Shown: positions 11,397-62,373, counted from the first letter of the whole stretch. The stretch: 63,588 bases of DNA, filler included, from Neolecta irregularis DAH-3 (GCA_001929475.1; 7 parts of 7 records of this genome joined end to end with filler, not necessarily neighbours in it), one strand, 5' to 3'. Program-made: numbers and translations. Notes: generated by a model not told the origin, from the sequence alone.

Positions 11397-11496
11397 NNNN
11401 NNNNNNNNNNNNNNNNNNNNNNNNNNNNNNNNNNNNNNNNTTAATTAATTAANNNNNNNNNNNNNNNNNNNNNNNNNNNNNNNNNNNNNNNNNNNN
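11397..11496. other. Artificial scaffold linker (N44-TTAATTAATTAA-N44); also at 33634-33733, 48428-48527, 56359-56458, 61138-61237 and 62274-62373
   Basis: Six identical 100-nt spacers carrying stop codons in all six frames. Confidence 0.97.
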
Positions 11497-15828: not shown

Positions 15829-18800
15829 ATGCCGCCCAATTGCTCAATTCCACCGGTCTCACTGGTTACCAATGAGATTATTACCATTACTTCTGCGATG
15901 AGAAAAAATGCAAGATGGGCTGGTTCTGGTGTAGCTGCGATTCTTGGGGGAGTTGGGAACGGCGATGTTGCTGGACGATGGGGACTCCGCGGTCAGCGAG
16001 GCGAGAACAATGCCAATGTACAATGATCTAAGGAATCTAATGGGTGATTTGTAGGATAATAGCCTCCTGAATGGATTTAGCAGATTGAGGAGTGAAATCG
16101 CGGATTGCAAGGGTACAACCCACGTCTTGAGAAAGCGAAAATTAAAGCAATTAGATATAACGACGTTCGACACACCAACTCTTCTTTCGCCATTCCTTGC
16201 CGTAGTTCAGAGTAGCACAACTACAGGGGCTATTACTTCTTTATCGCTCTCTGCCCTTCAAAAATTCTTTTCCTACAAAATCATCAACTCCTTTTCGCCT
16301 CGTCTCCCAATAGCAATTCATTCACTCTCTACTGCGATAACACATTGTCGTTTCGAGGCATCGGATTCTGCCCAGGATGAGGTCGTTCTTCTCCGAATTT
16401 TGAAATTAATGGAGGAAGTGATGACTGGGTGTGCTGGAGATGTGTTGAGCGATGGAAGCGTTTGCGAGATGATGGAAACGGGGCTTTCCATGTGTTGTCA
16501 AATGCGTCTCAGCGAAATGCTTCGCAAAAGTAGTGAAATGGCGATGGTCACGATGGTTCAAACATGCTTTGAAAAACTAAAAACACTACCATTGAATGAA
16601 TCCGTCGATGAAAGCAATACTCAGAAAACTCTCGAAGTCCAGTTTGCAAAGTCAGCCCGGTGCGGTTCAGACACAACTCCTGAAAAATTCAAGTCTATTG
16701 ACAGATTACAAGATCTATCCCTCGAGAAGTCTGGTTGGTGTTTACTTTTGGTGCCCTGAATTAACGGCAGAGTTGTTCCAAAATCTTGATCCCTATGGCC
16801 TCGTTTCGATCAGAGAATTGCTTCGAGTCCTAATATCTCTTCTTGATCCATACGCAAAGCAGCACACAGATTCGATGCGAGTTATGGCTCTAAGGCTTAT
16901 AGATGTTGCTTTTGAAATCGCTGGCTCGACGATCGCTGCACATCCTTCTCTATCTTTTCTTGCCACTGACGATCTATGCCGATATTTATTCCAACTTATT
17001 AGGACAGATACGCCACATGTCCTCTCGCATTCTCTACGACTAATATCGACTTTGCTTTTCACCTTGCGTCATAAGCTCCTCCTTCAGCAGGAATTATTCC
17101 TCGGTTATGTTGTAAACTGCCTTCATCCCAAAAGCGATCTTCCCAAGGAAATTGATCCAATTTTATATGATGGCATCCCGTTATCCCCGAAAGTCAGACT
17201 GGACAACTCGGGAAGAAGTACACCTATTCCCATCAAGGAACAACGGCGATTCGGCCTGGAGGGCGGTAATAGAACTTCTGATGCCAGAGAATTAATGGTT
17301 GAATGTATGGGCGGACTGGCTCGCATTCCGAGTTTCATGGTTGATCTGTTTGTCAACTATGATTGTGTGATTGACCGGAGTGATTTATGTGAGGACATCA
17401 TTGGTTTTCTCTCCCGGGTATTCTATGAGTTTCTTAAACACCTCACTAACGAAAAGAATGCATTTCCAGATGCTGCTACATGGAGTACGCAAAACGTTCC
17501 TCCCCTCTGCCTCGATGCACTTCTAGCTTATATTGGCTTCATTGCAGATAGATTGGATTCCGGGGTATGCTAGTCTTTCGATCTTTACCTGACTATAGGG
17601 AACGCCCGACAAATACCCTAATCTTGAGGCTCTCCTTTCCCAACGAGACCGAAAACAGATTATTATCAAAGCTGCCCTGAAATTCAATGAGAATTACAAA
17701 GCAGCAATCCCATTTCTACAGGAACATGGTCTTGTAGATGATGCAGCTTCTCCACCTTCAATGGCAAAATTCTTGCACGAAAATTCTCGTCTTAACAAAT
17801 CTCTCGTTGGAGAATATCTTGGCAAACCGGCAAATATTGAAGTTTTGGAGCGATTCATTAAATTATTTAGTTTCAAAGGTAAAAGAATCGACGAGGCGTT
17901 GCGGAGATTACTCGAAACTTTCAGACTTCCGGGAGAGGCGCAACAGATTGATCGAATTGTAGACAAGTTCGCTGCCTGGTATTATGAAAGTCAAGAGGGC
18001 GAAACTGTTATTCGGTCAAGTTCTGCGGCCTATGTATTGACCTTTGCAACAGTCATGCTCAATACTGATCAACATAACCCTCAAGTAAAGGTAAATCTGC
18101 TATCAACTTCTTGTAATTAATCTCAGAAAAAAATGGAGTTCTCTGATTTTGCCAAAAATGTTCGCGGAGTAAATGATAACGAAGATTTCCCAGACGATTT
18201 CCTGCTAGAAATATACGCTGCAATTCAAACACACGAAATCATCATGCCTGAAGAACACGATAATCAGGCTTCGTTCGATCATGCATGGACGGAACTTCAA
18301 TACAAATCGACAGGTGCGGGAGATCTTACGATTTGTTCCGAGACAAACATATTTGATAGACCCATGTTTGCGAGCACTTGGAAGCCTGTCATCGCGACAT
18401 TATCCTATGTATTTACCTCCGCTACCGATGATGCCGTTTTTCATCGAGTTATCAATGGTTTCAACCAATGTGCCGAAATTTCAAGTCGCTTTGGCCTTTG
18501 TGATGCGATGGACCATATTGTCTTATGTCTTTCGCGAATCACTGGGCTCGCTACAAAGCTCACTCCTTCAACGAGATTGAACACAACTATCGACATTGAG
18601 GGAAATGGTGTTACTGTTTCTGAACTCGCTGTCCGTCTTGGCCGGGATTTCAAAGCTCAGTTGGCGATGGTAGTACTTTTTAAAATTTGCAATGGCAACG
18701 AAAAATTCATTCGAAAAGGCTGGAAACAGGTATTACAATTGACAATTATATCGCTATCAATTAGATCTTTCGAATTCTTCTTGGGTTATTTATAAATGGT

Positions 18801-20623
18801 CTTCTGCCACCCTCGTTCTCGCGTATTAACAAGCATCTACAAATCGACCCAATTCCTCTTGAACCGCTCGAACTCTCAGGAAAGAAGCAAACAAAGAATG
18901 AAGGTGGATTCATTTCCGCGTTTACGTCATATTTATCAAGTTATGCTGTTGATGAACCACCTGAACCCTCATCGGAAGAAGTTGAATGTACCCTTTGCAC
19001 CAAGGATTGCGTCAATTCTTGTCGACTGGATGAGGTTTCTGGTCATCTCATGTATGAATTTTCGAGATTTAACTTAACATTTTAGATCCTTGGATCTCAA
19101 AAGTACTAAACATCTGCTAAACATTCTACTTCCATATGCAACTACGGATCCCACCCGTAAATTCTTGTCTCAGAAGAGAACAGTTGATGTCAATGGACCA
19201 CTCCCTGTGACTTCTTCTGCCGAAACTAATTATGATGCTTCATTGGTTATGATATTCGAATTCGCAACTTGTCTAGTACTCAGAGATGAACAAAGTCTTG
19301 AGGAACTTGGGTATGTTCTTGTCGTATAATTTTACTTACATGAATAGAAATCCTGTAGTAGAAATGCTTGAAGGAGTTATAAAGAACGCTAATCGAGCCC
19401 ACTGTGTCATGATCGAACGGTGCTTTAGATATTTGATGGCCATCTTTGAAAAGGCCGGGAAAGATGTTAACTTCCTACCAATTTCTCAATTGACATTACC
19501 AGCTTGAACAAGTTTCGATTCTCGACATTTTCGATCACATCTCGAATTGGGAAGTTGAACTCCAAGTTCAGTTATGTTCTACAGTTCTTCCACTACTTCA
19601 AAAAGCGCTCACAATCAATCCGCGACTCGCAGAACATCCATCTGTCTTTATTATTTTGCGAAACCTACTTAAACATCAATCCACCGTCGATGTCGTCTTT
19701 ACACTTGTCAAGGATATTATTGCGAACAATCATGTCTTTCAAACAACTTATGTTCCGCTGGTTGAACTGTTGGATGAAATTACGACGATGGGAGAGATTG
19801 GTGCCAAACGCGAACAGCAGTTAGATACATCCCCACGAAGGAGGAAGTCCGGAAAGGTCAATGATAAGCCGCAAGTCCACACTTTTCCACATATACTGAT
19901 ATACTAGACATGGGAAGGTAATCGACCGAGCCAATCAGGCAGTTGAGCAACTCTACAATCTTCGCTTTCTACTTCCCGCCTGGATTCGATACTCAGAACT
20001 TCCACGCGATGAGGCATGGCACACATTATGGGATCCTCTTTTTGCCTCTCTTTCCAAACAATGTTTAAATCCTTGTCGTGAGGTTCGGTTTCATTCGATG
20101 ACACTTCTTCAGCGGACTCTACTATCTCCAGAACTTCTCGAACCAGAGTCAAATGCTTGGGTTTCAATGTTCGAAGATATTGTTATCTCGCTTGCTTTGG
20201 AAATGATGGAACCTAAACTGTCGAATATTGATCCGCAAGGTGTGGCTGATACGAAAGCACAAATGGTCTCGATTGTGACGAGAACTTTTCTCTGCCACCT
20301 TCACCGACTACCTGAGATGATGCCCGTATGGATGTCGGTAGTGGACACTCTGCACAGGTATGTGAGCAAAGGAAGTCATGTCTGAATCTATCAGGCTGTT
20401 GTTGAGCAGAGAAGGGAATTCTCTTCGAGAGGCCGTTATCGAATCAATAAAAAATGTCCTTCTTGTGATGGCTTCTTCGGGGTATCTGTCTCGGCCTCTT
20501 AGCGGGCAGCCTAATGTAATATGGGATAAAACTTATGAGCGGATCAATATGTTTCTTCCTGGACTTTTAGATGAATTATTCCCCGAGTCAAAGGAGGGAA
20601 CCACTGAAAAGGGAACAACGTAG
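15829..20623 (+). CDS. GEA2: Sec7-domain ARF guanine-nucleotide exchange factor (Gea1/Gea2/GBF1 family)
   Basis: AITHCRFEASDSAQDEVVL, FVNYDC, Sec7 motifs FRLPGEAQQIDRI and VMLNTDQHNPQVK, EIIMPEEH. 12 introns, one of them GC-AG (19871-19907). Confidence 0.92.
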
Positions 20624-28933: not shown

Positions 28934-31817
28934 CTATTCAATTTCCTCAACTACGACTTCATCATCGTCATCCGATGCGATATCTGTCATATCCTCATCA
29001 TCAACACTTCCTTCCCGACTCAAAACAAAATCATGGTTTGGTTTGATGTATATTCTTCCATTCCGGACCGTAATCTCTGCGGTTTCTCCGTCTCGAATCT
29101 GTCCGCGAAGGATCATAACTGCAAGAGGGTTGAGTATTTCGTTTTGAATAAGTCGATTAAGTGGACGGGCGCCATAGATGGGGCTGTAACCGGCACTTCC
29201 AAGATTATCCTTCGCAGCGTCGTCCATGGTGATGTTTACTGCTCGCTGATTTTCAGCTAGTCGTTTCTGAACTTCCTGAATACGAACTTCGACAATTTTT
29301 CGAATCTCACGTTTGCTGAGTCTGTTAAACAAACAGATTGAGCTAATTCGATTCAGAAATTCGGGCTTGAAGAATTTTCGGATTGATTCCATAACGAGCT
29401 CTTTCGTTTGAGAATCTACCTTGGCAGAGTTCGACAGAGCAAGATACTCAGCGCCGAGATTCGAAGTCATGATAATGACCGCGTTCTTGCAATTGACTAC
29501 TTCGCCTTTTCCGGACGTAAGTCTTCCTTCATCAAGAACTTGAAGAAGAATATTGAGAACCTCCGGAGAAGCTTTCTCAATTTCATCGAACAGAACTACA
29601 CAGTATGGTTTTCGACGTAGCTGCTCGGTGAGTTGACCCCCTTCGTCGTGTCCTATGTAACCAGGTGGTGCACCGATAAGTCTAGATACTGAATGTTTCT
29701 CCATGTATTCCGACATATCGATACGAACCATGGCGCCTGCGTCATCGAATAAGAATTCCGCAAGAGTCTTACATAGAAGTGTCTTTCCAGTACCCGAAGG
29801 ACCCACAAACAATAAGCTTGCGATTGGTTGATTGGAATCTGCCAGACCGGACCTACTTGTTTGCCAAGTCATACGAGAGGCATACACACCTTGAGAGTCG
29901 AATTGAATTTGCAACAGCAGTTACAGCTTCCTTCTGGCCGACAACAGCCCTTCCGAGAACCTGTTCCATGTTTAAAAGTTTATCGATTTCGGTCTGCTTA
30001 AGTCTGGTAACCGGAATACCCGTCCACTTTGCAACAATGTCACAAATCTGATCCGGCCCAACCACGTCAGTGACTAATGGCGTAACTCCTGTAATTTCCA
30101 TTTGGGCGGCTGCCTCTGCATCGATTTGAGATTTCTGCCGTTCGAGAATTTCAATTCGTTTCTGAAGGTCTGGAATGCCGTAGTATGTTAGATCGGCCGC
30201 TGTTTGGAGATCCCCTCGCCGTTCTGCATCGGCAGCTTTGACTCGGAGTTCATCGAGCCGTTTTTTGGCTTTTTGAACTTCGTCGCCTCTTTGTTTTTCA
30301 AGCTCGTACTAGGTTATTAGCCAGAATCATTTGTGATAAGAAAGACGTACTTTCTCTTTCAGTGGGCGAAGTTCTTCCTCTAGGTTGGCTGCTTCCATTT
30401 TTGCAACTTCCAATCGGTCCTTGGAGATTTTATCCTTCTCCCGTTCGAGAGCGTGTATTTCAACCAGGACTCTCCGCAGATTCCTCTCCAAGACATCTAT
30501 CTGTTCCGGCTGACTATCTCTTGCGACTCGAACGCTTGCAGCAGCCTCATCAATCAAATCGATGGCAGAATCTGGAAGTCGTCGTGAGGTAAGATATCTT
30601 CCTGCCAGCTGAGCTGAAGTGACAAGGGCGGCATCTGCAATCGTGACACCATGATGAACTTCGTACTTCTCCTTCAATCCTCGAAGAATCGAGATTGTAT
30701 CCGGGATTGAAGGTTCTTTCACTTGAACTTGTTGGAAACGGCGTTCAAATGCAGCATCTTTCTCAATGAATTTCCGGTATTCTTTGATTGTCGTGGCTCC
30801 GATACAGTGAAGTTTACCTCTCGCAAGAAGAGGTTTAAGGAGATTTGCAGCGTCCATTCCGCCTTCCCCGGAGGCTCCAGCTCCTTGAAATTCAGAGGGA
30901 GAAGTTCATAATATGACATTTACCCATAAGAAGATGCATTTCGTCGACAAATAAAATAATCATATCGCTGGAATTTTCGATTTCCTTCAATACACTCTTG
31001 ATCCGTTCTTCGAATTCGCCGCGATATTTGCTTCCTGCGACTAGAGAACCGATATCAAGACTGAGGAGCTTTGTATTCTGAAGATTCGCGGGAACATCAT
31101 TGTCGACAATTCGCTGAGCAAGTCCTTCAGCAATTGCAGTCTTCCCAACACCGGGTTCGCCAATCAAGACAGGATTGTTCTTAGTTCTAGTAATTTAATT
31201 AACGGCTCTAGTTGATTGTCTTACCTTCTTGAAAGAATTCGGATAACTCTGCGTATCTCATCTTCCCTACCGATTGTGGGGTCCAAAGCACCTTCTCTGG
31301 CTTGAGCGGTAAGGTCGACGGTATATTTACTGAGCGCTTCGAATCCTTCCTCTGCAGATTTTGATTCGACTCTGCGATTTCCGCGCGTTGAGATAATGGA
31401 TTGCTCAAGAGCCTTTGGAGTAACACCAGCCTCAGTTAAAGCTTGTTTGATAATGTTATCTTCAGCGACGGCAGCAATGATGTGATCGACCGCAATAAAT
31501 GAGTCCTTTTGCTGTTTCTGCAGCTCAGCGGCGCGACGTAGAGTTTTCAGTGATGATGGAGAGAGAGCAACGCTTTCTGGTGGAGGGTCTTGTGAGGGTT
31601 GACGAACAAGCTGTTTTTTGATATTTCTTTCGGCGACAAGAGGATCTCCTCCTGCTTTTTGGATAATTGTTTTAAATAAGGAAGACCCGTCGTCGTCATT
31701 CAGTAGACTACACGCGATGTGGACTGGCATTATTTGCGGATGAGCATAGGCGGTCGCCATGTTATGCGACTCCTGGACGACCTTTTCAGCCTTTTCTGTG
31801 AATTTCAAATTATTCAT
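28934..31817 (-). CDS. HSP104: Hsp104 AAA+ disaggregase
   Basis: Clp N-domain, [40 protein letters not shown], acidic C-terminal tail. Four introns. Confidence 0.96.
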
Positions 31818-33545: not shown

Positions 33546-33733
33546 TGTATGGCGGTTTGTTTCCTATATGTGATGCTTCTTCAAAGGTCCCCTTTTGATT
33601 TTCTTGTATTGAATTTGTTGGCAGACCATTAGTNNNNNNNNNNNNNNNNNNNNNNNNNNNNNNNNNNNNNNNNNNNNTTAATTAATTAANNNNNNNNNNN
33701 NNNNNNNNNNNNNNNNNNNNNNNNNNNNNNNNN

Positions 33734-35753
<2,020 letters not shown>

Positions 35754-39468: not shown

Positions 39469-39489
39469 TAGGGTTAACCCTAACCCTAA
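39469..39489. promoter_or_regulatory. TTAGGG/CCCTAA telomere-like motif cluster about 45 bp upstream of an ATG; possible Tbf1/Teb1-type site
   Basis: TAGGGTTAACCCTAACCCTAA. The regulatory role is inference. Confidence 0.35.
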
Positions 39490-39533: not shown

Positions 39534-41918
39534 ATGAGTGCTCAAGCTTCAGTATTTTCTCCTCAACCGGCTGTTTGTAAGTTTTATCAATCGTCTACTG
39601 GTAGAATTGCTTACCCCGAATAATCTTATGTCTAGGTTGCAAGCGAGGGAGTGGCTGCACATTTTTACATCCCGCTGAGGGTGAACTCAAAACCCCAACT
39701 CCCAGTCGTGCGAGGGTTGATTCGAAGAAAGATTATCAACGTCAACATTCTCAGAGAGCAGATCAATCGAGAGTTGTTCCAAAACCAGTTCCAAAGTCTA
39801 TACAGCAGGTGCCAAATAGTTTTTAGATTACACTAACGATATCAGAATGATCCAAATTCAGTTCAAGAACATCATCTAGTTCGACTAAAGCGGCGATATC
39901 CCAAGATCGAAGAGAAAAAGTAAGGATTGAGATTATTTCGTTAATAACTGACGTACAAGAGCTGGAGGAAATATTACCCTTCAATTCCAGTTAATTCCAT
40001 CGGACCCTGCTTTACCTTTCGATATATCCCATCTCGATATCATACTTACAGTTCCTTCGAATTATCCAATCTCTTCTTCAGTAATCCATATCAAAAATGC
40101 GGATATACCGAGAGGCTACGCTTTCAATATTGAAAGGGCTTGGAATGAGATCAATGGAGATTTTCTGACAAAGACAAAAGAATTAGATAGGCGTCTTGAG
40201 GAATTTTTGAGCATGGGGAAAGTTGAGACCGTTAAAATTGTGAAGCCGAAGCAAATCAAATCTGAAGTGCTCTCAAAGGTCGAAATACAAAGACGTTCTC
40301 AATCAGAATTTACAGCAGAACAAATTGCAATAGCAAAGGTTCACCTGGACCAGGAAATTTCTCAGCTACAGGCTCGGCTCAGGGATCTAAAGGTGATCAG
40401 GTGTGACGACTACTGAATGAAACTAATGAAAGGTCCGTTAATGATTCTACGACTTACGAGGTATTAATAAGGCCATTAAAAACAACTGGACTTCCAGAAG
40501 AACTCCAGAGGACTGTTCCCATCCACCTCTTTATTCCTTCCTTATATCCGCTACAGTTGCCCGATCTAAAAATCCCTTCTTCCACTTCCACATATGCTAG
40601 AAATGTCGAACGTGAATTCATCCCATTGGTCAACGAACATAAGGAAAAATCATTATTTTCGATTCTGAACATCTTACAAATAAGGTTCTGCGATTTGGCT
40701 ATGACGGAAAGAAGCTACCAAGCTCTTCCTTTCTTAGATAATTTGAAAAGCATCGAAATCTCGAAACATGAAGACTTCAAATATGATCCAAACCAAATCT
40801 ATGCAATTCCTCCTATTCACGGAGAGTCGGATGAGACAATAAATGACAAGAGATCTGAGCCTAATTTTGAAGACACTACAGAAGCAGAGAACGCAATAGA
40901 CATGTCTCTTATAGATCAAGAGGTTTTGTCCGTCAAGAAAATTGTACCAGCAGTCGAAAGAGGCATATCTATATCGTTTCCAAACATCCATCTGTCCAAC
41001 ATCTCTCTTCTTGAGACATATTCGTTATCGCTTATGATAAATTGTGCCCGATGTAAAGCTGTTATGGAAGTGCCCAGGATTCTTCGGTCTCTCCCTTCAA
41101 AGATTTTGCAATGTCAAACCTGTTCCTCAAACATCTCAGTTGCATTCCGTCCAGGTAGTATCACCTGTGCGATCCCCCTGACGATCAGTCATTCTCCACC
41201 AACACGAGAGGAAGATCGGCTACTTGGATCTAGCAGGTGCCTCACCTCAACAACTTCTTCCATCTTCATTTCAATCGACATGCACTGAATGCGGAACGCA
41301 GACTGCTCCATATACGATCTCACCAGCACAAATATTGACACAGATTTGTAGGAAATGCCATGCCCGGATGGACATAAAAATTGACTCCATCAAATTCTTA
41401 AAGATTGGTGTTCCTGGCAAGGCCTTGTATACCTCTTATCCTGACTGATATTTCAAGGTGTATATATAGATAACCCCAACACAGGAGGGAAGAAAATTAT
41501 CAAACAGAATATCGGCATTAGTATAGGAAAACCACTGCCAGATTTCGGTCATTGTACTCATTACAAGAAATCGAGTCGATGGTTTCGGTATATATTTATT
41601 CTGGGCGACTGATTTCTAAGGTTCGAAGATTTCCTTGTTGTTTGAAGGTCTATGCATGCAGTAAATGCCATGATGCATTATCAGACCATCCATTTGAATT
41701 TGCAACTCGTCAAATATGTGGATATTGTTCGAAGGAGCAAATATACTCTCAGAATAAGGCTTGTGTAAATTGCGGAACACAGTAGGAACTTCTTGCTGAG
41801 AATATTTTGATCGTGTAGTCCGATTAAAAAGACCACCCCGTTTTGGGAGGGCGGCGATGGGCTCCGGGACAAAGTCCGCATGTCGAGAAAGGATAAGCGG
41901 AAATTTAAGAAAGGCTGA
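39534..41918 (+). CDS. CCCH-zinc-finger / CHY-zinc-finger protein
   Basis: N-terminal CKFYQSSTG|CKRGSGCTFLH, PSDPALPFD, CxxC pairs, CHY motif CTHYKKSSRWFR|FPCCLKVYACSKCHD, C-terminal FWEGGDGLRDKVRMSRKDKRK. Eight introns. Confidence 0.88.
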
Positions 41919-42238: not shown

Positions 42239-42923
42239 CCTCTACCAAATATTGTCTGCATTGTCCCAGGATACATTATCATATTGAAATGTCAATTCCA
42301 ATCATTAATATGGATTCCAGAATATCTCAGGATCTTACCAAAGCAAATTTTTCAATTTTTGAAGACCAGACCAGTGTTGGCAACAATATAAACGGAACGG
42401 TATTGGACCCTAACCCTAACCCTATCACCCTAAACCCGATTTCCAAACCGTTTCAGATACAATTTGGATTTCATTACTATCCTCGAGATTTATTGGAAAT
42501 CCTCAATGTATTTTGTGAATTCTTTCTTGTTATAACAGGAATTTACTGTAGAAAATACAATTATAAAGAATTGTTTACTTATTCTTCATTACCCACCTTC
42601 GCCCAGTTTGAATATTCAAATTGTTGAAAATGGGTTCAAAGTCGATTGTAGACCATCACTTTGGGTTCGCAATAACGATGGACAACTCATAGAAAACTCA
42701 GGACGGTCTTTTTGAGCTTGGGCCATAGCTGACGCCAGCTCGCTGAAATCTCAAGTCATGGACGAAAACTAAGATTGCATGGTCTGGAGCTTAGTCCTAC
42801 AGGATGCCGAAGGGTCAAATTCATATTTTTAGAATGACGCACATCACATTTTAATTATAGACCTCTACTGTTTCAGTTTTCTCGACGAACTGAACCATTA
42901 AATAAGCAAAATGCTCAAAAGAT

Positions 42924-45884: not shown

Positions 45885-47826
45885 TCATTCGCATTGCTCC
45901 AACAAGCGAGCTTCAACAATATCAGCCCAAACAACTTCCTCAATTCCCTCCATCGAAAGATCTTCCTCGCCCGTCTCAAATCTTCCCAGTATTCTCTCGC
46001 CAGTTTCCGGGTTATACTCTCGTTTGGGAATGTCTCGCTTTGCTAGTCGCACCATGACAGAGCCAGGTTGTTCATCCACTCTAATTACGCGGCCGGTTTT
46101 CCAAGTAGAGAGTCTTGGTTCGTATTGGGGCGTCATAGTCAAGTGTTTAAAGACCACGATCGAATTTACCTTGGGAAGAGCTGCTTGGAGTCGAAGGGTT
46201 GTCGGATCGGAGGGAAGAGGTGGAAAATCTTCGAACTGGTCACCAGAGTGGTGTAATTCATCAGAGAAGGTATTAGTAGTTGCAAATTCATCTATAGTTG
46301 CAATTCGTCGCCGAAATGGGAAGGTTGGGATGTTGACTTGAACATTTGGATCTCCGCATTCAATTGCTCGAATACTGCAGCGAGACTTCCAATCTCCCAC
46401 TGCACTCGATCTATCTGCATAGACAGGATTACTGAAGTTTTCAAAATTTATGCTTTTTGAAGTGGTAAATGTTTCCGTAGGCTTTGACGTAGTTGAATCA
46501 CTTGTCTTCAACAGCTCCCCAGTCTCAGTCTCTAGCCTTTTTGTTTTTCGAAGATTCCTTGTTTTTTGTCTGGTTCGAAAAGCCTCTTTTGCAAATGTCC
46601 AATCTTTTGTCACTGGCTCGGCAGCAGGAGTGATTTCGATTCGTGATGGAGGAGGTGGAAATCTTTGGCTATTGGGGATACTGTTTGATATAAACCTGGT
46701 AATAGCCGGTATATCGGGTATCAAAGTCCCTATCAGTCAGATGATATCTGAAACAATTGGCCTGAGGTACGTTGTTCGGGGTCAACATGAGCCTGTTCCA
46801 TCACTACATCGTTTGACGATAAATCTTGTTGATTCTTATTCAAACGCTCGGCATCTTCCCATGATCCATCCTTAGGAATCATACCCTCGCTCTTGAACTT
46901 TTGAAGCAATCTGGATTTTTTCTTTCGTAGATTCCGACTTTTAGTTTGAGGCTTGCCATGACCAGGTGGTATGTATGTTACTTTCGGGGGGGAAAGTTGT
47001 ATTTCTTCATCTTCATCATCGCCATCAGAGGAAGAAATGGATGATGAAGAAGTTGAGGATTCGGACGATGACGAAATTTCCTTTAAATATTCCTGTGTGT
47101 AATGAGATTTCTCTTGTGCAGCTAATTCCGAACCGGCCGCTGAATCAGAAGACTCACTTTCTTCTGAGCTTGACTCTGCCGACTCAAGATTTCTTTCCGT
47201 AGGGGGAGACTGAGATTTTGATGGAACAGATCTCTCGCTTTTATTTACCTTTAATTTCTTCAAGACACGTCCCTCATCAACCTCTTCATCTTCAGACAAT
47301 GAGGGGTTTCCGCTTTCCTCTCCTTTCTGTCTCTTCGGAATCTCGATTCCATTTCCAAAATTGGAGCGACGACCGTCCGTCCCGGTTGCTCTTATACAAC
47401 GGCCAGAGAAACCATCTTCTCTAGAAAGTCAGTTGTGTCTCGAAACAGATCGCAACACTTCTAGTATCTTGATTTCCCCATTTCTAGAGAGTGTAGATAC
47501 TGAGCCATCGAAGCCTGGGCGCCGCCTTTTCCGTTGTGGTCCAGGAATGTTACACATCTTTGCTCTAGCATGTCGGTTCTTGTCCCGAGCCTAGAGTATT
47601 ACGATACCAAATCTCCATCTCTTATGACACCTTCCACAATCGAATCTCGGAGCAAATCAAAACCATCAACTTGTAGAGACACATGGAAATTTCCGTCAAT
47701 CTGCTTTCGAAGGTATGATGCTATCCGACTCTCCAAATCTGCAATGGGAAATAACTTCAGATCAGAGACTTCCAGCCAGAACTTGATAATCGGAAGTGGG
47801 AGCTGTGTTGAGACACGTATCCGCAT
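45885..47826 (-). CDS. Coilin-like (Mug174-like) protein
   Basis: Ubiquitin-like N-terminus MRIRVST..LP...LQVDGFDLL.DS..GVIRDGDLV, Ser/Glu-rich middle, PPGHGKPQTKSRNLRKK motif, IRAIEC...PFRR, Tudor-like C-terminus. Two introns. Confidence 0.7.
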
Positions 47827-48427: not shown

Positions 48428-48813
48428 NNNNNNNNNNNNNNNNNNNNNNNNNNNNNNNNNNNNNNNNNNNNTTAATTAATTAANNNNNNNNNNNNNNNNN
48501 NNNNNNNNNNNNNNNNNNNNNNNNNNNGATCGACGGCCGGGGAGCAGCAGCCATGGCGGTGCGGCGGCGGCGGCGGACGGCAAGGTCATATCTAGCGAGC
48601 AGATGCGATTCTAGGCGGGCCGAGGCGCGCTAGAACCGTTCTGCGGCTTCAGCCACCGCAGCCACTCCCGCATTAAGCGAGTTTTACGCTCCCAACCCCA
48701 CAACCCGCCCCTCGCCCAGGCCCGTGAGATGCCGGGCATGCACTCGATATCCCTGATATCTCATGGATAACTCATGCTATTGTACTCCGCAACATTACTC
48801 GTTTATGCACCAA

Positions 48814-50596
48814 TTAGACAAACAGCTTCCCGCCCGCGCTATGCAGCCGCCGCACCGGTCGCACCCCCCACATCGCATCCTCCTCCGTCTCATCCTCCAA
48901 AACCTTTTCTCGGATCCCGCCAACCATAGACACAGGCCGGTATCGTCCAGGCAGTTTCGACCGGTCAGTCGCAAACGAGCGGATGCTCATCGGCCGGCCA
49001 CTTGGAATCTGGCCCAGGAGTGAGTGTCCAGAGAGAGATGCAGGGGGAGGCGCCTCGAGCGTTTGCTGCTTAATCCTGTTTAGCAAGTAAATCTGCTGCG
49101 CAACCATCTGCTGCAGCATCAAATTTTGTTGAGCGTTGTCCTGGTCACTGTTGAGCACCGACTCCGGGACAAGACTACTCTTGCGACCAGCAGATTGAAC
49201 AAGATTATACCGCGTCTCCCGCTTCATTCGATCCTTTAATCCTTCAATCTCATCATGCATCCGAATACGAGGTGTCTCCATCCGGCCGATCGACAAATCA
49301 TGTGGCCCTGTCTCCACTTGGTCTTTCCCCCCTATTTCGTCGATCGACGCCAACAAATTCCCCGCAGAGGAACTCCTCGCGCTCGATCGACTAGTGATAC
49401 ATTGTCCAAAGTACGGATCGCGGGGAAGAGGTACATTGCGCAAATTAGGGTGACTGGCAAAACTCTTCAATTCGCCTATATTCCGTTGTCGGCCTTCGCG
49501 AGGGAATTGGTGTGCTTTCAGCACTTGAAGGGGAATGCTCTCTTGTTGGTCATCTTTCAATTCACACCAACTGTCTTCTTCCCTAAATACAGGCGGTCGT
49601 GGCGTTGTCAGTCCCGTGACCCGTTGGATCTGCTGCCGGTAAACGTCTAATCGAGCTGCATGTCTGGCGCGCTGTCGAGAAATTTGGCGACGGTACTCAT
49701 CCTCTTCGTCAGAGGATGAGAACGAGTCGCTGTCTGAATTATCGAGTTGGGCTTGCATGGTTTCTGTTTGCAGTTCTAATGTGGAGACTACTCTTTTAGA
49801 GCCATGGCGGAGGGGACCTCCTCCACGGAGATTAGTTTGTTTGGTGTCCGCGGCTGAAATATCGGGGGTATCTATTGTATCGGGGTCGGTATCTGGGAGC
49901 AATGACGTTTCTGCGCGGTCCGGAATATCCTGTCGAATATCATCCAGAATATCCTGTTGAATATCATCCGGAATATCCTGTCGAAAATCTTCCAGAGTAT
50001 CTTGTCGAATGTAATCTCGCGTGTCCTGGCCCATTCTGGTCATAGACAACAGTTTGAATCCCTGGTCCAAGCGGAGGGGAGAGGGGTCGTCTGGTGATTA
50101 GTATTTGAAGCAAGGCAGAGCGAGGCGCATCCCTGTCTCTCTTGGCTCAGATGACAGGGTGACACTCCGGGCGGGCAAATATACCTTTTAGATCGTCCTC
50201 TTCAAATCCGCTGTCTCTGTTCTTTGCAAAGGCAGGGGGGAGGGCCTTCAGGAGGGTTGAGGAGCGGACTGAGGAGCGCGGCAGGGGCTTTTTTGTGGGG
50301 GAGAGCTGTGAAAGACGGGCTCTGTAGAGATCTGGTTCTGATTTCTGGGGACTTGTTCTGGAGAGACGATGCTGTGGTATATACGGACTGGCTGGATCGA
50401 TCTGTGACTTGACGAGATTGCCGTCTGATTTCTGGGGACTGACACTGCGGGAAAAATCGAGACGCGGCGGCTCCCACTGGGGCGTGCTGTAGCCCCCGTC
50501 ATAGCGGGCAGACAACAGTTTGAAGGAGGAATCGGGCGAGGGGGCCGAGTCGATGGAGAGCTGGCGGGAGCGGCGGTGGAGAAAGGCCAGCGGCAT
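48814..50596 (-). CDS. Low-complexity hypothetical protein
   Basis: Two long ORFs joinable by a phase-1 intron at about 50091-50184; Ser/Pro/Arg-rich; no recognised domain. Confidence 0.65.
49921..50029 (-). repeat. 24-nt coding minisatellite (QDIPDDIR-like 8-aa units)
   Basis: QDTRDYIR QDTLEDFR QDIPDDIQ QDILDDIR QDIPD. Confidence 0.85.
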
Positions 50597-50742
50597 GGCA
50601 GAGAAACAGAGAACAGGCAGCCAGCGTCTCCGCGCAGTCAGGCGCGCTAGCACCAAGGGGGCTAGCGCCGTGTTCTATAAATAAACACGGCGCTGTTTGC
50701 ACCCGCCGCCCAACAAAGTCACGCTGCGTCATTTCACAGTAC

Positions 50743-51914
50743 ATGGACATTGCCCCGCTGCACGTCCCCGTGGCCCGCAGGCTGCAGACGCTGGTAAGCG
50801 CCGCGCTAGCCGCTCCCGGCTAACCCCTGCTCGGCCGTGGTGTGGCACGCCGTCGCGCTCGCCTTCTTCGCAAGCCTCTTCTTCGTCTGCTGCGCCAATC
50901 CCCTCCTCTGGCCCGTACCCTAACCCTAACCCTAACGACCCTCGCTAACCCCAGGCCCTCCTCCTCTACCTCGTCCGTCCCTCCTCGATTCTCTGCTCAC
51001 CCCAGATCTACTGCGCCAGGGACGATGCCTTTGAGACTGGCCGTCTCCGCAGAATTGCATGGCTGCGCGCACTCCCGCTGTGGTCCTGCTACGCCCACTA
51101 CTTTCCTCTCACCCTCCTCAAGTCAGCCCCCCTTGATCCAAATCATATTTATATACTCGGCTACCACCCGCACGGCATCATCTCCCTCGCTGCCTTTGGC
51201 AATTTCGCCACAGAGGCCACCGGCTTCAGCTTGCTCTTTCCCGGCATCACAAACACTCTCCTCACCCTCGCCTCAAACTTTCGCATCCCGTTCTACAGAG
51301 ACTATATCCAGTTCCTCGGCATTGCTAGCGTCTCCCGCTCCTCCTGCGAAGCTCTTCTCCAGCGCGGACCTGGAAACGCAATCACCATCGTCGTGGGCGG
51401 TGCTCAGGAATCTCTCCTTTCCAAACCAGGCACTCTCAATCTCGTCCTGCGCAAGCGCCGCGGTTTCATAAAACTCGCTATCCGCACTGGCGCCTCCCTC
51501 GTCCCTGTTTTGAGCTTTGGCGAAAATGGTAATCTTTCAGCTTCTCCAAATCTCACCCAAGAACTCTACACACAGGCAGACAATTCCCCAAACTCTTGGG
51601 TCTACTGCCTCCAAACATCGATGAAAAAACTCTGCGGCTTCACTGTCCCCCTTTTTCACGCCCGCGGGGTATTCAACTACGACTACGGATTAATGGTACC
51701 TTTTATTCAAACATCATTAACCATGCAGCCCTGGAGACACCCTGTCACCACTGTTGTTGGCAGACCCATCCCCGTCCAGAAGGCTGATCGGCCAACAGAA
51801 GATATGGTCAACCAGGTCCAACAACTCTATATCGCTGAACTCGTCCGTATCTGGGAGGATGGCAAGGATAAGTACGCTCCTGGTTATAAAACAGACTTGC
51901 GCATCGTCGAGTAA
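50743..51914 (+). CDS. DGA1: Diacylglycerol O-acyltransferase (DGAT2 family)
   Basis: APLHVPVARRLQTL|AVVWH, YFP, GYHPHG, VVGGAQESL, RRGFIKLA, VPVLSFGEN. Five introns (the first ends in CG) and an 18-nt microexon at 50955-50972. Confidence 0.93.
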
Positions 51915-51947
51915 AGAAGAAATATATAGATTGATAAATAGCATCTA

Positions 51948-52913
51948 TTATCCATCCTCTTGCACTGTAATGTCAACAACTTCCATCTCAACCTGTGGCA
52001 ACAAGGCCGCAAAACAAAGATAACTAGTATGGTTCTTTACATTTTGTTCCATTCGACTGACCTCCTTCAACACACCCGTCCCCCTCTCAATCTTCTCCTC
52101 CTTGCCTTCATTCCGTCGCTTTCTCTTAATCTTGCGAAGCCGCTCAATACTCGAATTCAAATCCCGCAACTCCACTTTGCGAGACTCCCAGTTTCGATAA
52201 GCAATTTCTACAAGTTGGATATTACTCCATTGCTCAAGTTGTAATATTTGAATCGTCCGTTGAACTTGCTCGAGACATGGAGAAAAGGTACATATACGTA
52301 CCATCTCTTGTGTATTCGCCACAGATTTGACATGGGGAATTGCGTCCCATGGTGCCGGGAGATCGAGAAATACCGCATTCACATCAGAATTAATCTCTTT
52401 AATCTCAAACCCATGTTTACATACATCGCGATGAGTGAGGGTGACGATATTCGGTAGTAATCCATGATCCTCCAATTCTTTCTTGGCTGCAAGAAACCGC
52501 AGCAAATGGTACTCATAACTCCAAATTCGTCCAGTTTCGCCCACCGTCCGTGAAAGACTATGCGTCAGACTCGCACTGCCACAGCCTGCTTCAATAACTC
52601 TCGAACCGGGCCCAATGCCCAGTTCCCCGGTAATATAACTCGCGTCTGGCGAATAGACAATCTGTGTACGGTGAGGCAGCGATAAACTCCAGAGCTCAGG
52701 CGACGGGTGCAATATATGGATAAATCCTCTGCCGTTCAAAGACTGTATCTGTGATCCGTACGGTTTTCCAAGAAGCAAGTTGTGTGGGTACGACCCGAAT
52801 TTATTATCAAATCGAGCGTCTCGAGTAATTTTCAGCGGGATAATCGAGTCTCGAGATAACCAAGCGAGCACCAAATCACCTTCTTCGACATGAGTTTTCG
52901 ACCGGGTAAACAT
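51948..52913 (-). CDS. TRM61: tRNA m1A58 methyltransferase catalytic subunit Trm61/Gcd14
   Basis: PELWSLSLPHRTQIVY, EAGCGSASL, FLDLPAPW, FSPCLEQV, HTSYL. Intronless. Confidence 0.95.
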   Translation of the reverse strand: MFTRSKTHVEEGDLVLAWLSRDSIIPLKITRDARFDNKFGSYPHNLLLGKPYGSQIQSLNGRGFIHILHPSPELWSLSLPHRTQIVYSPDASYITGELGIGPGSRVIEAGCGSASLTHSLSRTVGETGRIWSYEYHLLRFLAAKKELEDHGLLPNIVTLTHRDVCKHGFEIKEINSDVNAVFLDLPAPWDAIPHVKSVANTQEMVRICTFSPCLEQVQRTIQILQLEQWSNIQLVEIAYRNWESRKVELRDLNSSIERLRKIKRKRRNEGKEEKIERGTGVLKEVSRMEQNVKNHTSYLCFAALLPQVEMEVVDITVQEDG

Positions 52914-53054
52914 CCAATGAAGAGAATATTTTCTCTATCTTGGTTTTAGGGGGAGTTCCGGGATTCGCCGAGTATATTTGATGTCCGGGCTGTTCGGTCT
53001 CCACGATCGCCTGTAATTGCCGCTCCTTACTTTTGTCGCCGCCACGGATATACA

Positions 53055-54945
53055 ATGAGTGCATCGCCGTTTAAAAGGAAACAATCTGTTTTGTTCCATC
53101 CGTCGTCGTCTTTATCAGCGTCAATGGCCCGGCCTACGTCTTCTGCCAGCTCAAAAAGCACCATCTTGACCATCCCAACACCGACACCGACAGCAGACAA
53201 TATTTCTGTCGCAGTGCGCATTCGGCCAAACGAGAATGCATTCCAGACGTCGTGTTGGGAGGTGGATTGTGTAGAGGGAAGAATCAGGGCCCCGCAGATG
53301 CCAGAGTTCAATTTCGGTGAAATCTGGAGATAGGCCTGCGGCTGATGACAGATTCCGTGTTTGACGATACAGTCTCCAACAAGCAAGTTTATCAAAATGT
53401 TGGACAGCGGATCGTGCAGAGCGTGGTCGATGGATACAATGGTGTGTTGATCCCTCAATTGGCTGACAACTCATCTATCTCTAGGTACCATATTCGCCTA
53501 CGGGCAAACCGGTTCAGGAAAGACTTTTTCTATGTGCGCTTGAGTTATTCATCATGCACTTATATTAAGGCAGGGAAACAGTAGCGATCCCGGAATCATA
53601 CCCAACGCGTGTCAAGAAATCTTTGACTTTATCGCCGTTGTATGTACCCGTATTACCCAACAGACTCACTAGTCAAGACTACAGACAGGGCATTCGCGAT
53701 AAAAGTATCCTACCTAGAAATCTACAATGAACAGATCCGGGATCTGTTGGCTGATCCATGCTCGTCATCCGAAGAAATCAAACTCCGAGAAGACAGAAAG
53801 GTACCTGATGACCCAAAATGCTCCCCGGTACTGATCCTCAAGAGAGGCGTCTATGCTACTCCGTTGACTGAAATCCAAGTCTCTTCCGCCGATCAAATAA
53901 TGGCAATCCTCGAACGTGGCCAAAGTTCACGAAGAACAGCTGCGACAACTCTGAACGATTTATCTTCGCGGAGTCATGCAATTTTGAACGTCCTTATCGA
54001 GTCCCGTGAAGCTAGTATTGGGAGCAAGCGAGGCGGGATGGTTACTTCTGGCTTGAGGACCTCGGTGTTGGTTTGTATGTCTTTGCAACGAGGGAACTGA
54101 GTGGTAGAGTCTAATTGATTTGGCGGGCAGCGAGCGAGCGGATAAGAATGAGGAAAGAAGGAAAGAAGGAGCATACATCAATAAAAGTTTACTGACTCTC
54201 GGGACCGTCATCGCCAGGTTATCGTCCCCAAACAGGTATTTCTCTCATCTCTAAATGCTAACTTTACCCAGTACAAACCATATTCCATTTCGAGATTCCA
54301 AGTTGACTCGATTACTCCAATATTCTCTCTCCGGCAATGGTCTAATTTCAGTCCTAGCAACAATGTCCGATTCTCCACCTTCCGTCACTGAATCCTTCAA
54401 CACCCTTAAATTCGCCTCGCGGATAAAATATATCCCAACAAAACACCTGGAGAAGGATGAACAACATTTCGACTCGAGTCAGTTTTCCATGGAAAACCAG
54501 CTGCTTAAAAATAAAATCGAACAACTTGAACAAACTCTTGAACTCGAACGACAACAGTTTCAAGAAAATCTCTCTCTCCTTTCGATTTCCCAGAACTCTT
54601 ACCAACTTAAAATAGCATTCTTGGAAAGCGGAGATACAATCCACTCTCAAGATCTCTCAGCAGTGAGCCACCGCATTCCCTATACAGTTCTAACCCCAGC
54701 GTATATCAGAACTAGAAGACCAAATAATATCATATCCATCACCAAATCTACTAAAAGAAAAAGATTTAGAAATCGCGGAATTGAAAGCAGAGTTGGATGA
54801 TAAAGATACAATTATCTCGGCTCTACGAAGAGCTAATCGGAAGAGAGAAGTAGCTGAATTAACTAGTGTCGAAAGATTATTCTCGCCAGACAAGGATTCA
54901 AAGAAACGTCGGTATTATCTTGTCGAAAGGAGAAGTGTCTCCTGA
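53055..54945 (+). CDS. KIP2: Kinesin motor, Kip2/Tea2 (kinesin-7-like) type
   Basis: [51 protein letters not shown], and C-terminal [16 protein letters not shown]. Eight introns. Confidence 0.85.
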
Positions 54946-55068
54946 TCATTAACTCACTCATTCACTTCATTTATCGATTATATTCTATCTTCCTGTTTCT
55001 TGTAGATTTGTACACTCATCTGTATGTGTGGATTTCGACAGGTAGGAGGCGCGCTATCCTGGTCTTTA

Positions 55069-55122
55069 TTCCTTCCTTCTTTCCTTCCTTCTTTCTTTCG
55101 TCGGCTTTTGCTTGCTTGCTTT
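55069..55122. repeat. (CCTT)/(CTTT)/(GCTT) microsatellite
   Basis: TTCCTTCCTTCTTTCCTTCCTTCTTTCTTT...GCTTGCTTGCTT. Confidence 0.8.
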
Positions 55123-56266
55123 GATTCCTTTTCGTTCGGTAGGAGTAGGTATTCGTTCATTCTCCATCATTTGGCTTTTTTAGGCTACTTTCCTTTTTTA
55201 TTGTTCTGTTGTCTTGGGGTCGATTGCATATCCTGATTATTTGACAAATTTTATGCTTGGAGGAAAGTTCTTTGATTAACCATGTCTTTTTTCATAAATT
55301 TGCCCAGCTTCATCGACCATGAAATTTCAACTATTGGATGGAAATTTTCAAAATTGACAAGCTCAATTAAACTGCCTTATTCTGTACATCTGATCAAATC
55401 TTTTTCAAGTTGCTTTCTGTAAACCCTGCAAGAGTTCTCTTTGGAATTGTTTAGATTGAGCAGGATAAAAGTTCACGAATAGTTGGAATCATTCACTGCT
55501 TATAACTTTCTATCTGAATGTATCTACCACGACTACGTGAACGTCCCAACATCATGTCTTATATTATAGCATGACCGGACATTATCTAATGAGTTCTCTT
55601 CGGAATCTCTTGCTGGGATTCACAAAGTGGTAGCTGTGTCAGATCCTGCTGCCTGGATATTGAGGTTGCATCTACTACTTTCAACTCTTTCCGACTGATC
55701 TCACATTCACTTTGTACACCTATGGAAAGCACCTGTACTTCGATCTCACAGTTGTCAATGGTTGCAAAAGCCTGAGAGGGGATTGACATTTTCGATGTTA
55801 TTATATGTTTTTTCTCATATTATCAGACTGAACAGTGCTGATTTGTTTTATCTTACATTTGACGGGTGTCTTAATGTGTTGCGGTGATGCTTTACTGATA
55901 ACAGACCAATCTACAATTCCAGGAGGTCGCATATGTTTGAACGGAAAGGGAACTGAATAGGGTCGCACTTTTTTCACAAGAACTTCCTCAGCCCAATTCT
56001 TTGGCGAAGAAGACCCCGCCTGCAATGCGAGCTCTTCAATCATTTCCAGTGCTTTCCTTTCATATTTTGAAGGGTTTTCTGTGGAATACTAGTGGGTAAG
56101 CATGGTTGGATCAACTCGTTGTTCACCAATCGCTCCAACGATACTCTAATGCGCACCTGACGATTCCAGTAGGAATTCGATGATATAACAGGTTTGTAGG
56201 ATTGGACCGGCTCGCAACCATCAAGTAAAATTGCAATGACTTTGTAGCATCGCCCATATATTGTGG

Positions 56267-56358
56267 GGGTTCCGGGAACCCCCACAGCCACCGCGGACGG
56301 ATAACCACCGCCACCGGCAAACGAACCAAGGACATCCTCAAAGCGCGATCGACCTTTC
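56267..56358 (+). repeat. Copy of the repeat at 63190-63281 (degenerate transposon coding sequence), cut by gap
   Basis: GACGGATAACCACCGCCACCGGCAAACGAACCAA is identical in both copies. Confidence 0.85.
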
Positions 56359-57973
56359 NNNNNNNNNNNNNNNNNNNNNNNNNNNNNNNNNNNNNNNNNN
56401 NNTTAATTAATTAANNNNNNNNNNNNNNNNNNNNNNNNNNNNNNNNNNNNNNNNNNNNGGCGGGTCCAGTTCAGGGGCAGGGGCGAGCCGTTGTAGTCGG
56501 TCTTGGAGGCGCGGACGGAGAGGCAAACGGGATGCGGCAAGGCAGCTAGCTGCAGGCTGGTGGACGAGGCAGGAGGGACTCGCGGGACAGGTGAGGCGGG
56601 AGGGGAGAGGAGACAAAGTCGCGGGGGCTGGAGGTGGAGGAGAGAGAATTGACCCCTGACACTGAGTTCTCATACCACATCATGAAAGGCACGTTGGAAC
56701 CCAAAGGAATGGTATTTCTTCGACATTGGGCAGCTGGTCGCTTAGAACTGGCGGCTGGAGGTGCTTGTGCAGAGGATACAAAGAGGATGTGTGGCGAGGA
56801 CAGCAGGTGAGTGCGGTGTCAAAGAGCAGAGTGCAGTGGAAGGTAATAGGTGCGGCGTAATGCAGGCTCAGACTCGTCCTCCACCTCTCACTCGTCTCCA
56901 TCTACCTGTCCCTGCTCGATGCCCCGCCCCAGCAGCAGTACTTTGTCCCGCTCACAGAGTCCTCATCCTTGGGAGCCCTGCCTCTGAAGGCTATCTCGTC
57001 TGCCGCCCGCCCGATGTCGCCTTCAGGCTCTCCCTGGATCTCATCCGCTGTCCCAGCACTCCCTTGCCTCTTCCACTGCCACACAAAGTCCCGCGCTTCC
57101 TGTCTCGACTTGGACCCTTTGCACCAGAACCATGCTGTGTCCAGATGCTCGTCTTTGCCATAGTTGCATTGTGGGCACTCCGTCCTCATGTTTAGGATTT
57201 GCTTCTCTCCGGCCCTGGCTTGCTCGCATCCTCCTTGTATACCTCTTTGGCTCAAAGTGGGAGATTCGCCACTGCTCCTTCCTCCAGCTTCGGCTACTAC
57301 ATCGCAGACATCATTGTCATCCCAATCTGCGAAAGCGCTACCCAGACCCTTGCAGCTTGCTTTACACACCTCAACCTGGTCTCCATCAAACTCTCCTACA
57401 CAGATGTCATTGATGTGTGTATTGCTAAGGATGCAAATATGCAGAATTGGGGATATAATAAGATGTATGTATCCTTTTACCAATAAGGCTAATATATTAG
57501 AGGGTTTGGCGGCATGGATTCTTTATGAGTGAAGGGAATTAACATCCCTGATGCGATCTCTGAACAGTGCAACTGTAATAGTGAATTTTCAATATGTCAT
57601 TAATGTCATAGGCATGGTGTGCTATACTCAAATGGATCTTGTCCCAGAAATTCAGAGCGAGCAGATGGGGATATGGTTAGTTGTGGTGGGCAAGGTGGCG
57701 GAGGAGTGCAGCCAGGCCAGGGAATGCAGCGACGCAGGTGAGGCATTAGGGGGCAGCCGCCTGGTGCTGACAGAGATGCCCAATAAATTCAACTGTCATA
57801 ATAGAAAATGGGAATATGGTCTTATGTTGGTCAAGTTTGTCTTTTTGGTTTAATGTTTGGAATATCAAACTACTTTACATTTCCCCACTTGTTTAAGCTC
57901 CCTCTTTTCTCGTCATACTTTGCTACCTGGCAGACCATCCTATTCTTGCTGCAATCTTGTCGAAGCAGTTGCA

Positions 57974-61137: not shown

Positions 61138-61799
61138 NNNNNNNNNNNNNNNNNNNNNNNNNNNNNNNNNNNNNNNNNNNNTTAATTAATTAANNNNNNN
61201 NNNNNNNNNNNNNNNNNNNNNNNNNNNNNNNNNNNNNAAGAGTAACAACGGTAACATCCTCACCGCCAACCCACTTATTTCCATGTCCATCTTCCCAAAT
61301 CCCGTCTTCAAAATCGGTAGCGGTCATTGCGCACGCACGACAACGAACTTTAGAATCAAAACCCAAATCGAATTTTAAGCGCGCGTTTGATGAGCTCCAT
61401 ATTTTATAACATTTGGCTCGCCCGTCTTGCCCACACACTCCCTGTTGCGGCCCTGCCTATCACTGCCGCTGTCTACCTTCGTGGGTCCTGCGAGGGTGTC
61501 TGCATCACCGCCTGCTGGGCACCGCTGTAGTAGGCGGTGAGATGCAAGTGATACTGAACAACTGCTTCACGAAGCTGTTGGGCTTGTATGCCAGGCTGGC
61601 ATTATGGCTGTCGGAGTCTGGCGAGCCCCTTGCACGGTGGCCCTCCATCTCGTGGTAGGAAGTTGCTGCTGACCCTGCTCCAGCTGTTCCCATCACATAC
61701 CTTGCTACCCCTGCTGTAAGAGTGTCCTCGCTGCCACCAGCCGCTACACTGCATATTCCCCGACAAAGGGTACTGCCGCCTGCTTCGTCAGACAACCTG

Positions 61800-62273: not shown

Positions 62274-62373
62274 NNNNNNNNNNNNNNNNNNNNNNNNNNN
62301 NNNNNNNNNNNNNNNNNTTAATTAATTAANNNNNNNNNNNNNNNNNNNNNNNNNNNNNNNNNNNNNNNNNNNN

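Follow-up and report, generated by a model that had tools for sequence, protein, structure and literature searches.

A candidate GT-CG intron at the 5' end of the DGAT2 gene of Neolecta irregularis

The locus described here is the 5' end of a DGAT2 gene (DGA1-type) of Neolecta irregularis, in which we recognise six exons separated by five ultrashort introns that are 40, 40, 33, 33, and 33 nt long (Table 1). The first of these introns carries a consensus donor and branch site and ends in CG. Judged from the genomic sequence, it is plausible, although in our estimation somewhat short of an even chance, that this CG acceptor is used, perhaps inefficiently, which would be the sole route to the full membrane-anchored protein. 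A recently disabled acceptor is the main rival to use of the CG. Throughout, the window denotes the whole stretch of 63,588 nt that was analysed, and positions are counted from its first letter.

Results

The DGAT2 gene and its surroundings

An earlier note on this DNA had named the gene DGA1, and the assignment to the DGAT2 family was borne out by the Pfam profile DAGAT (PF03982), which matched from position 31 to 293 of its 297 positions with 260 bits and an E-value of 2.9e-77. Both HYFP and YHPHG occur in the exon 4 translation, and YFP and HPHG are what we take to be DGAT2 motifs. At the N-terminus, an RRLQTL-type motif and a hydrophobic hairpin of approximately 33 residues are both encoded in the DNA, and the two would become contiguous only via the CG acceptor.

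Table 1. Features of the Neolecta irregularis DGAT2 locus, with positions in the window
Feature	Position	Strand	Description
TATA-like motif (putative)	50676..50684	+	TATAAATAA; 59-67 nt 5' of the ATG; identified by sequence
Exon 1	50743..50793	+	ATG and 16 codons, the last ones encoding RRLQTL; P0001 starts here
Intron 1 (candidate)	50794..50833	+	40 nt; GTAAGC donor, GCTAAC branch (A 50823), 3' CG
Exon 2	50834..50914	+	81 nt, 27 codons (AVVWH...LLWP); most of the transmembrane hairpin; hairpin HMM match
Intron 2	50915..50954	+	40 nt; GTACCC...GCTAACCCCAG; contains (CCCTAA)3
Exon 3	50955..50972	+	18-nt microexon, ALLLYL
Intron 3	50973..51005	+	33 nt; GTCCGT...CTCACCCCAG
Exon 4	51006..51528	+	Start of the catalytic DAGAT domain with YFP and HPHG; PF03982; X2 contig with 0 differences
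Intron 4	51529..51561	+	33 nt; GT..AG, in frame; absent from X2 contig (joint 51527/51561, cut +1)
Exon 5	51562..51695	+	X2 contig piece with 0 differences
Intron 5	51696..51728	+	33 nt; GT..AG, in frame; absent from X2 contig (joint 51694/51728, cut +1) and from P0001
Exon 6	51729..51914	+	Stop codon TAA 51912-51914; X2 contig reaches 51902

The gene sits on a 7831-nt piece (48528-56358) of the window, which consists of approximately seven separate contigs split by paired runs of 44 N around 12 bases (11397-11496, 33634-33733, 48428-48527, 56359-56458, 61138-61237, and 62274-62373). Further N positions occur at 745-754 and 873-882, and the first 60 nt of the window are repeated at 11331, so that the first piece overlaps itself end to end. 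The coding ends of DGAT2 and of a convergent neighbour gene are approximately 35 nt apart. A GC-rich island (50500-51099), with a GC content of 0.58-0.69 per 100 nt compared to 0.435 for the window, spans the DGAT2 promoter and the first three exons, and from there GC decreases towards the 3' end of the gene, where it is 0.38-0.46. Telomere-like (CCCTAA)n repeats were observed at 50918-50936, 42407-42424, and 39475-39489; the first of them makes up most of DGAT2 intron 2, where each CCCTAA unit doubles as a CTAAC branch motif.

Sequence and anatomy of intron 1

The earlier note's description of this region held at every base: the 17 codons of exon 1 (...CAG ACG CTG) extend to 50793 and are followed by GTAAGC (50794-50799), GCTAAC (50819-50824), and CG (50832-50833), with GCC GTG GTG TGG CAC beginning at 50834. 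The 40 nt have the anatomy of an intron except for the last two bases, as had been claimed; of the U2-type features, the donor GTAAGC and the YTNAY branch GCTAAC are present, whereas the 3' AG is absent. The last intron base lies 10 nt from the branch A at 50823, and the intron borders coincide with a gap-free point of the homologue alignment. By our own estimate, the chance that a random 40-mer both begins with GTAAG[CT] and has CTAAC 5-12 nt before its end is approximately 4e-6, and on the evidence of its sequence the 40-nt insert is beyond chance.

The ATG at 50743 is the only one within 50680-50960, and the AVVWH codons that follow intron 1 are in another frame than exon 1. Retention of the 40 nt was confirmed to shift the frame, meeting a TAA at 50821-50823. 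The full list of AG ends in 50743-51010 comprises 50780, 50787, 50798, 50809, 50874, 50954, and 51005, and 50810-50872 is free of any AG. The two AGs set aside in the earlier note behave as it described. That at 50808-50809, combined with the donor at 50794, gives a 16-nt intron, which we rejected as too short and as ending 5' of the branch site, and that at 50873-50874 would yield an intron of 81 nt and a reading frame other than that of DGAT2, with a stop soon after the join. Overlooked, in contrast, were three canonical options that stay in frame, namely introns of 212 nt (50794-51005), 161 nt (50794-50954), and 40 nt (50770-50809).

Some other readings of the 40 nt were also rejected. The U12 consensus consists of a donor [AG]TATCCTT and a branch TCCTTAAC, and neither the donor GTAAGCGC nor the branch region CGGCTAACC fits a U12-type intron. 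A non-ATG or upstream start for exon 2 was discarded because of stops at 50795 and 50807 and the absence of an ATG. When introns 1-3 were compared to the window by blastn-short for introner-like repeats, no second copy of intron 1 was found, the best other match being 14 nt.

Short introns elsewhere in the window

In a noisy survey of ORF junctions elsewhere in the window, a pick was obtained for 40 junctions. At 13 of these, a GT..AG intron of 32-48 nt would connect the ORFs and looks genuine, its branch motif lying 3-9 nt before the end, compared to 10 nt between branch A and intron end in intron 1. The remaining 27 picks (56-393 nt) were mostly spurious ORF pairs or artefacts of the branch filter, and long introns may exist. 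Three such introns, of 38, 40, and 42 nt, belong to a Pfam-supported ClpB/Hsp104 gene. Since the junction introns are 32-48 nt, a 40-nt intron fits the local style better than one of 212 nt. The predicted junction introns include 17565-17598, 18091-18126, 19052-19085, 20358-20394, 40401-40432, and 46730-46770, as well as 35231-35267, 31187-31224, 30884-30923, 30309-30350, 4373-4410, and others. Introns of this kind would be very short for a fungus, and relatives recovered from metagenomes show the same style (32-40 nt). Donor-plus-branch modules occur 54 times in the window, with an AG 3-14 nt after the branch A in 32 and not in 22, most of the latter being chance matches outside genes, so that this count is uninformative on the rarity of a missing AG.

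Comparison of splice models

An N-terminal HMM was built from 66 homologues, and the GT-CG model was scored against 1361 canonical stop-free GT/GC..AG models. With three introns removed, the GT-CG model obtained 86.2 bits, and the cut at the CG proposed in the earlier note thus fitted the family N-terminus better than any other model tried. Among the 1361 canonical models the highest score, 62.0 bits, fell to one that uses intron 50770-50809 and loses VARRLQTL, and lower scores were obtained when exon 2 was skipped (40.2 bits), for the deposited model (32.5 bits), and for the cryptic AG at 50874 (12.9 bits). The exon structure originally proposed, with two introns, scored 69.2 bits and had missed intron 3 (50973-51005) after the 18-nt microexon, which raises the score to 86.2 bits. 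The number of Kyte-Doolittle-19 windows above 1.6 was 22 in the GT-CG model vs 0, this being the sole model with a hydrophobic segment.

The deposited protein and the hidden exons

A search of 5.8 billion proteins returned 2726 proteins under E 1e-20, of which the best 120 constitute the homologue set. The best match was P0001, annotated as 'Diacylglycerol O-acyltransferase 2B [Neolecta irregularis DAH-3]' (308 aa) and the single member of its cluster. The next fungal proteins among the matches listed are at most 56% identical, and no second Neolecta-like protein was seen among the best 120 of the 2726. P0001 splices RRLQTL straight to IYCARDD, corresponding to one canonical, in-frame GT..AG intron (50794-51005, 212 nt) that deletes the sole hydrophobic hairpin of the protein. 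In addition, P0001 retains the in-frame intron 51529-51561 as 11 residues (GNLSASPNLTQ), whereas a contig from the sequencing run X2 skips the same 33 nt. The retained intron 4 is an annotation error and, since it was kept though X2 shows its removal, the model underlying P0001 was not strictly read-based.

The hairpin omitted from P0001 was searched for with a second HMM, covering the 33 residues after RRLQTL and built from 74 of the 119 homologues listed, P0001 being excluded; the other 45 have no RRLQTL motif in their first 250 residues, and many of these are N-terminally cut models. When the window was searched as 2060 six-frame pieces of 20 aa or more, the piece at 50810 scored 26.8 bits (E 5.9e-7) and the runner-up 6.5 bits, while the joined peptide of exons 2 and 3 reached 31.1 bits. 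Neither the reading frame nor the signals of introns 2 and 3 are disrupted, and each of the conserved residues (H, FF, C, P, LWP, Y) is in place. This indicates that exons 2 and 3 either are still used or have been lost very recently, and we estimate that any loss would fall within approximately 1% neutral divergence. With 50794-50833, 50915-50954, and 50973-51005 removed, the N-terminus aligns gap-free and at equal length with that of Saitoella P0004 and other homologues.

Exon structure in metagenome relatives

A scan of metagenome contigs yielded 77 loci, 40 of them with a hairpin match. In 13 loci (L025-27, L031, L048-55, and L069) the hairpin is broken after LWP, at the position of intron 2. 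Eight loci were read, and seven of these (L025, L048, L050, L053, L054, L055, and L069) contain an 18-nt microexon encoding F[IL]IIYL with flanking GT..AG introns of 32-40 nt; the exception, L031, has a longer intron after LWP. The transcript-like contig L001, approximately 90% identical to the genomic L048, is without the three introns of L048 (35, 35, and 32 nt) and has the microexon. Introns 2 and 3 thus belong, together with the microexon, to an exon structure that was inherited, as this spliced contig of a relative confirms. The 18-nt microexon, ALLLYL in the window, is common to the window and these soil-metagenome fungi and absent from the deposited P0001.

At the position of intron 1, an intron was found in none of the 35 assessable metagenome loci. 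A hairpin match beginning at HMM column 1-2 was present in 36 loci, of which 35 pass from RRLQT into AV... (29 matched by a regular expression and six more with RRLQTT or RRLQTG), and one, L050, is cut at the contig start. Since none of the relatives has an intron there, they do not allow the age or conservation of the CG to be inferred. The possibility that intron 1 corresponds to the relatives' own first intron was rejected, the latter being located 20 nt upstream and in another phase. In L069, the site of the relatives' first intron is occupied by 39 nt (1112-1152) that start with GC, end with AG, and are also open in frame; they represent either a GC-AG intron or 13 inserted residues.

Base 50832 and read-derived contigs

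The earlier note had asked for base 50832 to be verified in reads, and it is C in the read-derived Logan contig of run X1, which over 50500-52000 has 0 other letters and 0 gaps at a mean word depth of 381; X1 may be the source sample, its contig is a re-assembly of reads and not an independent individual, and a minor allele at 50832 could escape, as assembled contigs lose rare variants. Because the X1 contig is identical, the C is not a consensus slip of the deposited assembly.

Run X2 is labelled 'DNA?' yet is transcript-like in its behaviour, and neither run is recorded as RNA. Its contig (831 nt, depth 139.5) has 51006 as its first letter, directly 3' of the AG at 51004-51005, and this start supports an exon border at 51006 that is common to the 33-nt and the 212-nt intron models. 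X2 has no contig over 50500-51005 (exons 1-3), which says nothing on expression or on intron 1. As the contig starts exactly at an exon start while introns 4 and 5 were assembled through, a fork in the assembly graph is suggested. From this behaviour of the graph, the break at 51006 hints at several upstream forms, which would fit a compromised acceptor better than an efficient one; X2 also breaks at 51902, where there is no splice site. The X2 contigs of the two convergent genes leave a 53-nt hole (51903-51955): that of DGAT2 runs to 51902, 10 nt short of its stop codon, and that of the neighbour gene begins at 51956.

Discussion

If the CG is used, intron 1 would be a true spliceosomal intron in which the acceptor AG has C for A. 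The spliceosome would branch at A50823 and then ligate at the branch-proximal CG 10 nt downstream, with a probable loss of efficiency relative to an AG and some aberrant by-products, and the product would be a 330-residue enzyme with both the RRLQTL motif and the membrane hairpin. At exon ligation the final G of an intron pairs with the first intron base, and a CG keeps this final G, while almost all 3' splice sites have an A at -2. The change from A to C is weak-to-strong and lies inside the GC-rich island (0.64-0.69 at 50700-51099 vs 0.435 for the window), and it may therefore be a recent, mildly harmful substitution or polymorphism. We roughly estimate that introns whose acceptor was recently killed are a priori no rarer than constitutive GT-CG introns. 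We consider it quite unlikely that the CG reflects a wider relaxation, in which the spliceosome of Neolecta and its soil relatives, with introns compacted to approximately 32-48 nt and 3' sites only 3-10 nt from the branch, would select the site by branch distance and final G and tolerate a non-A at -2. The GT-CG intron would then be constitutive and the sole route to functional enzyme, and other non-AG introns might be concealed behind truncated gene models.

It is rather unlikely, in our judgement, that the acceptor is dead, that is, that a recent change of AG to CG makes splicing stall after branching or proceed to the AG at 50873-50874, with a frameshift and an early stop, leaving a null or weakened allele as an incipient pseudogene. 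In yeasts, choice of the first AG is the textbook rule, and here the first AG after the branch point is at 50874, 51 nt away, with a frame that stops soon after the join. The weak-to-strong change in a GC-rich island suits a dead acceptor as well, DGA1 is dispensable in budding yeast, and the X2 break at 51006 would fit messy upstream splicing. However, the event would have to be very recent, as neither exons 2 and 3 nor the signals of introns 2 and 3 show decay, and the depth of the X2 contig over exons 4-6 (139.5 vs 121 for that of the neighbour gene) is unlike strong nonsense-mediated decay, contig depth being a poor measure of expression. Nor is it likely that the deposited model holds, with the donor at 50794 spliced to the acceptor at 51005 (212 nt) or 50954 (161 nt) and exon 2 or exons 2 and 3 skipped, which would give a DGAT2 of approximately 297 residues that lacks the hairpin and would leave fresh relic exons in the gene. 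P0001 has exactly the 212-nt join, its splice sites are canonical, the skips stay in frame (exons 2 and 3 being 81 and 18 nt), and the start of the X2 contig at 51006 coincides with its acceptor. On the other hand, the sole hydrophobic segment is lost (0 vs 22 windows), the fit falls to 32.5 bits, or 40.2 bits for the exon-2 skip, vs 86.2 bits, and the deposited model keeps intron 4, which is removed in X2. Gene predictors are normally unable to choose a CG acceptor, and the 212-nt intron may be the forced solution of a predictor so constrained. A clean two-exon skip would not be expected, given that a consensus branch lies within intron 1, 30 nt after its donor, and that introns 2 and 3 each possess a donor; moreover, a length of 212 nt greatly exceeds the 32-48 nt of the 13 short junction introns, though the survey allows long introns, and with only the deposited form and unspliced RNA present the X2 contig would be expected to extend into exon 1.

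Two further readings would dispense with the CG acceptor altogether. A cryptic canonical intron at 50770-50809 (40 nt, GTGGCC...GCTAG) would keep the hairpin and turn VARRLQTL into PLPANPCS; it is the best of the 1361 canonical models (62.0 bits), has GT..AG ends, stays in frame, and matches its neighbours in length. Nevertheless, we regard its use as very unlikely, as it lies 24 bits under the GT-CG model, throws away a perfect RRLQTL copy in frame with the ATG, and combines a weak donor (GTGGCC) and no YTNAY in its last 14 nt, while the consensus donor and branch just downstream would go unused. The C at 50832 could also be a sequencing or assembly error, or one allele of a mixed sample in which the expressed allele has AG. 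According to the genome paper, the sample consisted of field-collected fruiting bodies, and fruiting-body RNA was sequenced as well (PMC5309816); rare variants are dropped from contigs. Against this, the X1 contig is identical over 50500-52000 with no other letters at a mean word depth of 381, and the deposited contig agrees, making such an explanation highly improbable.

Should the CG acceptor be used, the gene would offer a rare non-AG 3' splice site as the only way to a conserved protein, and a natural system for studying site choice at the second step of splicing with the branch point nearly adjacent, in introns that are among the shortest in fungi. A constitutive use would make it a natural counterpart of the relaxed 3'-site fidelity of prp18-deleted yeast. 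If, on the contrary, the CG is unused, the locus would represent a very recently killed acceptor with two skipped exons still perfect, a snapshot of exon loss. Either way, the public DGAT2 model is without its membrane anchor and keeps an 11-residue intron, and canonical-only splice rules together with a minimum exon size can conceal a conserved microexon of 18 nt, present in related soil fungi as well. Our literature search found no paper on this intron or on intron sizes in Neolecta, and supplements to the genome paper may describe its annotation and introns. In the main text of that paper the terms 'intron', 'splice', and 'RNA-seq' have 0 occurrences (PMC5309816).

Compared to fungal DGAT2/Dga1 proteins (PF03982) in general, the Neolecta gene has the same domain and motifs, and its N-terminus aligns without gaps and at equal length; it differs in having an intron exactly between RRLQTL and the hairpin. 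Its closest counterparts in exon structure are the DGAT2 genes of soil metagenomes (L025-27, L048-55, and L069), which likewise combine an 18-nt microexon with introns of 32-40 nt, one of them located after LWP and another just before an I(R/Y) codon. These loci are at most 72-80% identical to the window protein, counting the best segment only, and their first intron differs in lying 20 nt upstream, before (E/D)RRLQT, in phase 1, and in ending with AG.

GT-CG introns are a known, rare kind, and the Neolecta case, if real, is unusual as the sole productive route. In two annotation sets they make up approximately 0.02% of introns, and 19 GT-CG junctions with RNA support are listed for Ganoderma lingzhi (PMC11590231). 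For FlyBase, eight of eight GT-CG introns are supported by RNA, and all eight adjoin a similar alternative splice (PMC4528330), so that none of them is a sole route. The Neolecta intron resembles those of FlyBase and G. lingzhi in its normal GT donor, in keeping the final G, and in that only the A at -2 is replaced by C (PMC4528330; PMC11590231). It differs from the FlyBase introns in that no canonical acceptor lies within 40 nt, in that it would be the sole route to the full protein, and in that it is known here from DNA sequence. In budding yeast, branch-proximal non-AG 3' sites, ACG included, are usable mainly in the absence of Prp18, and use of an ACG site in PHO85 was confirmed by RT-PCR (PMC10711555). 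Like these yeast 'BG' (non-YAG) sites, the Neolecta acceptor is a non-AG ending in G near the branch point, at 10 nt; unlike them, which are reported as minor products in a prp18 mutant (PMC10711555), it would have to function in a wild fungus.
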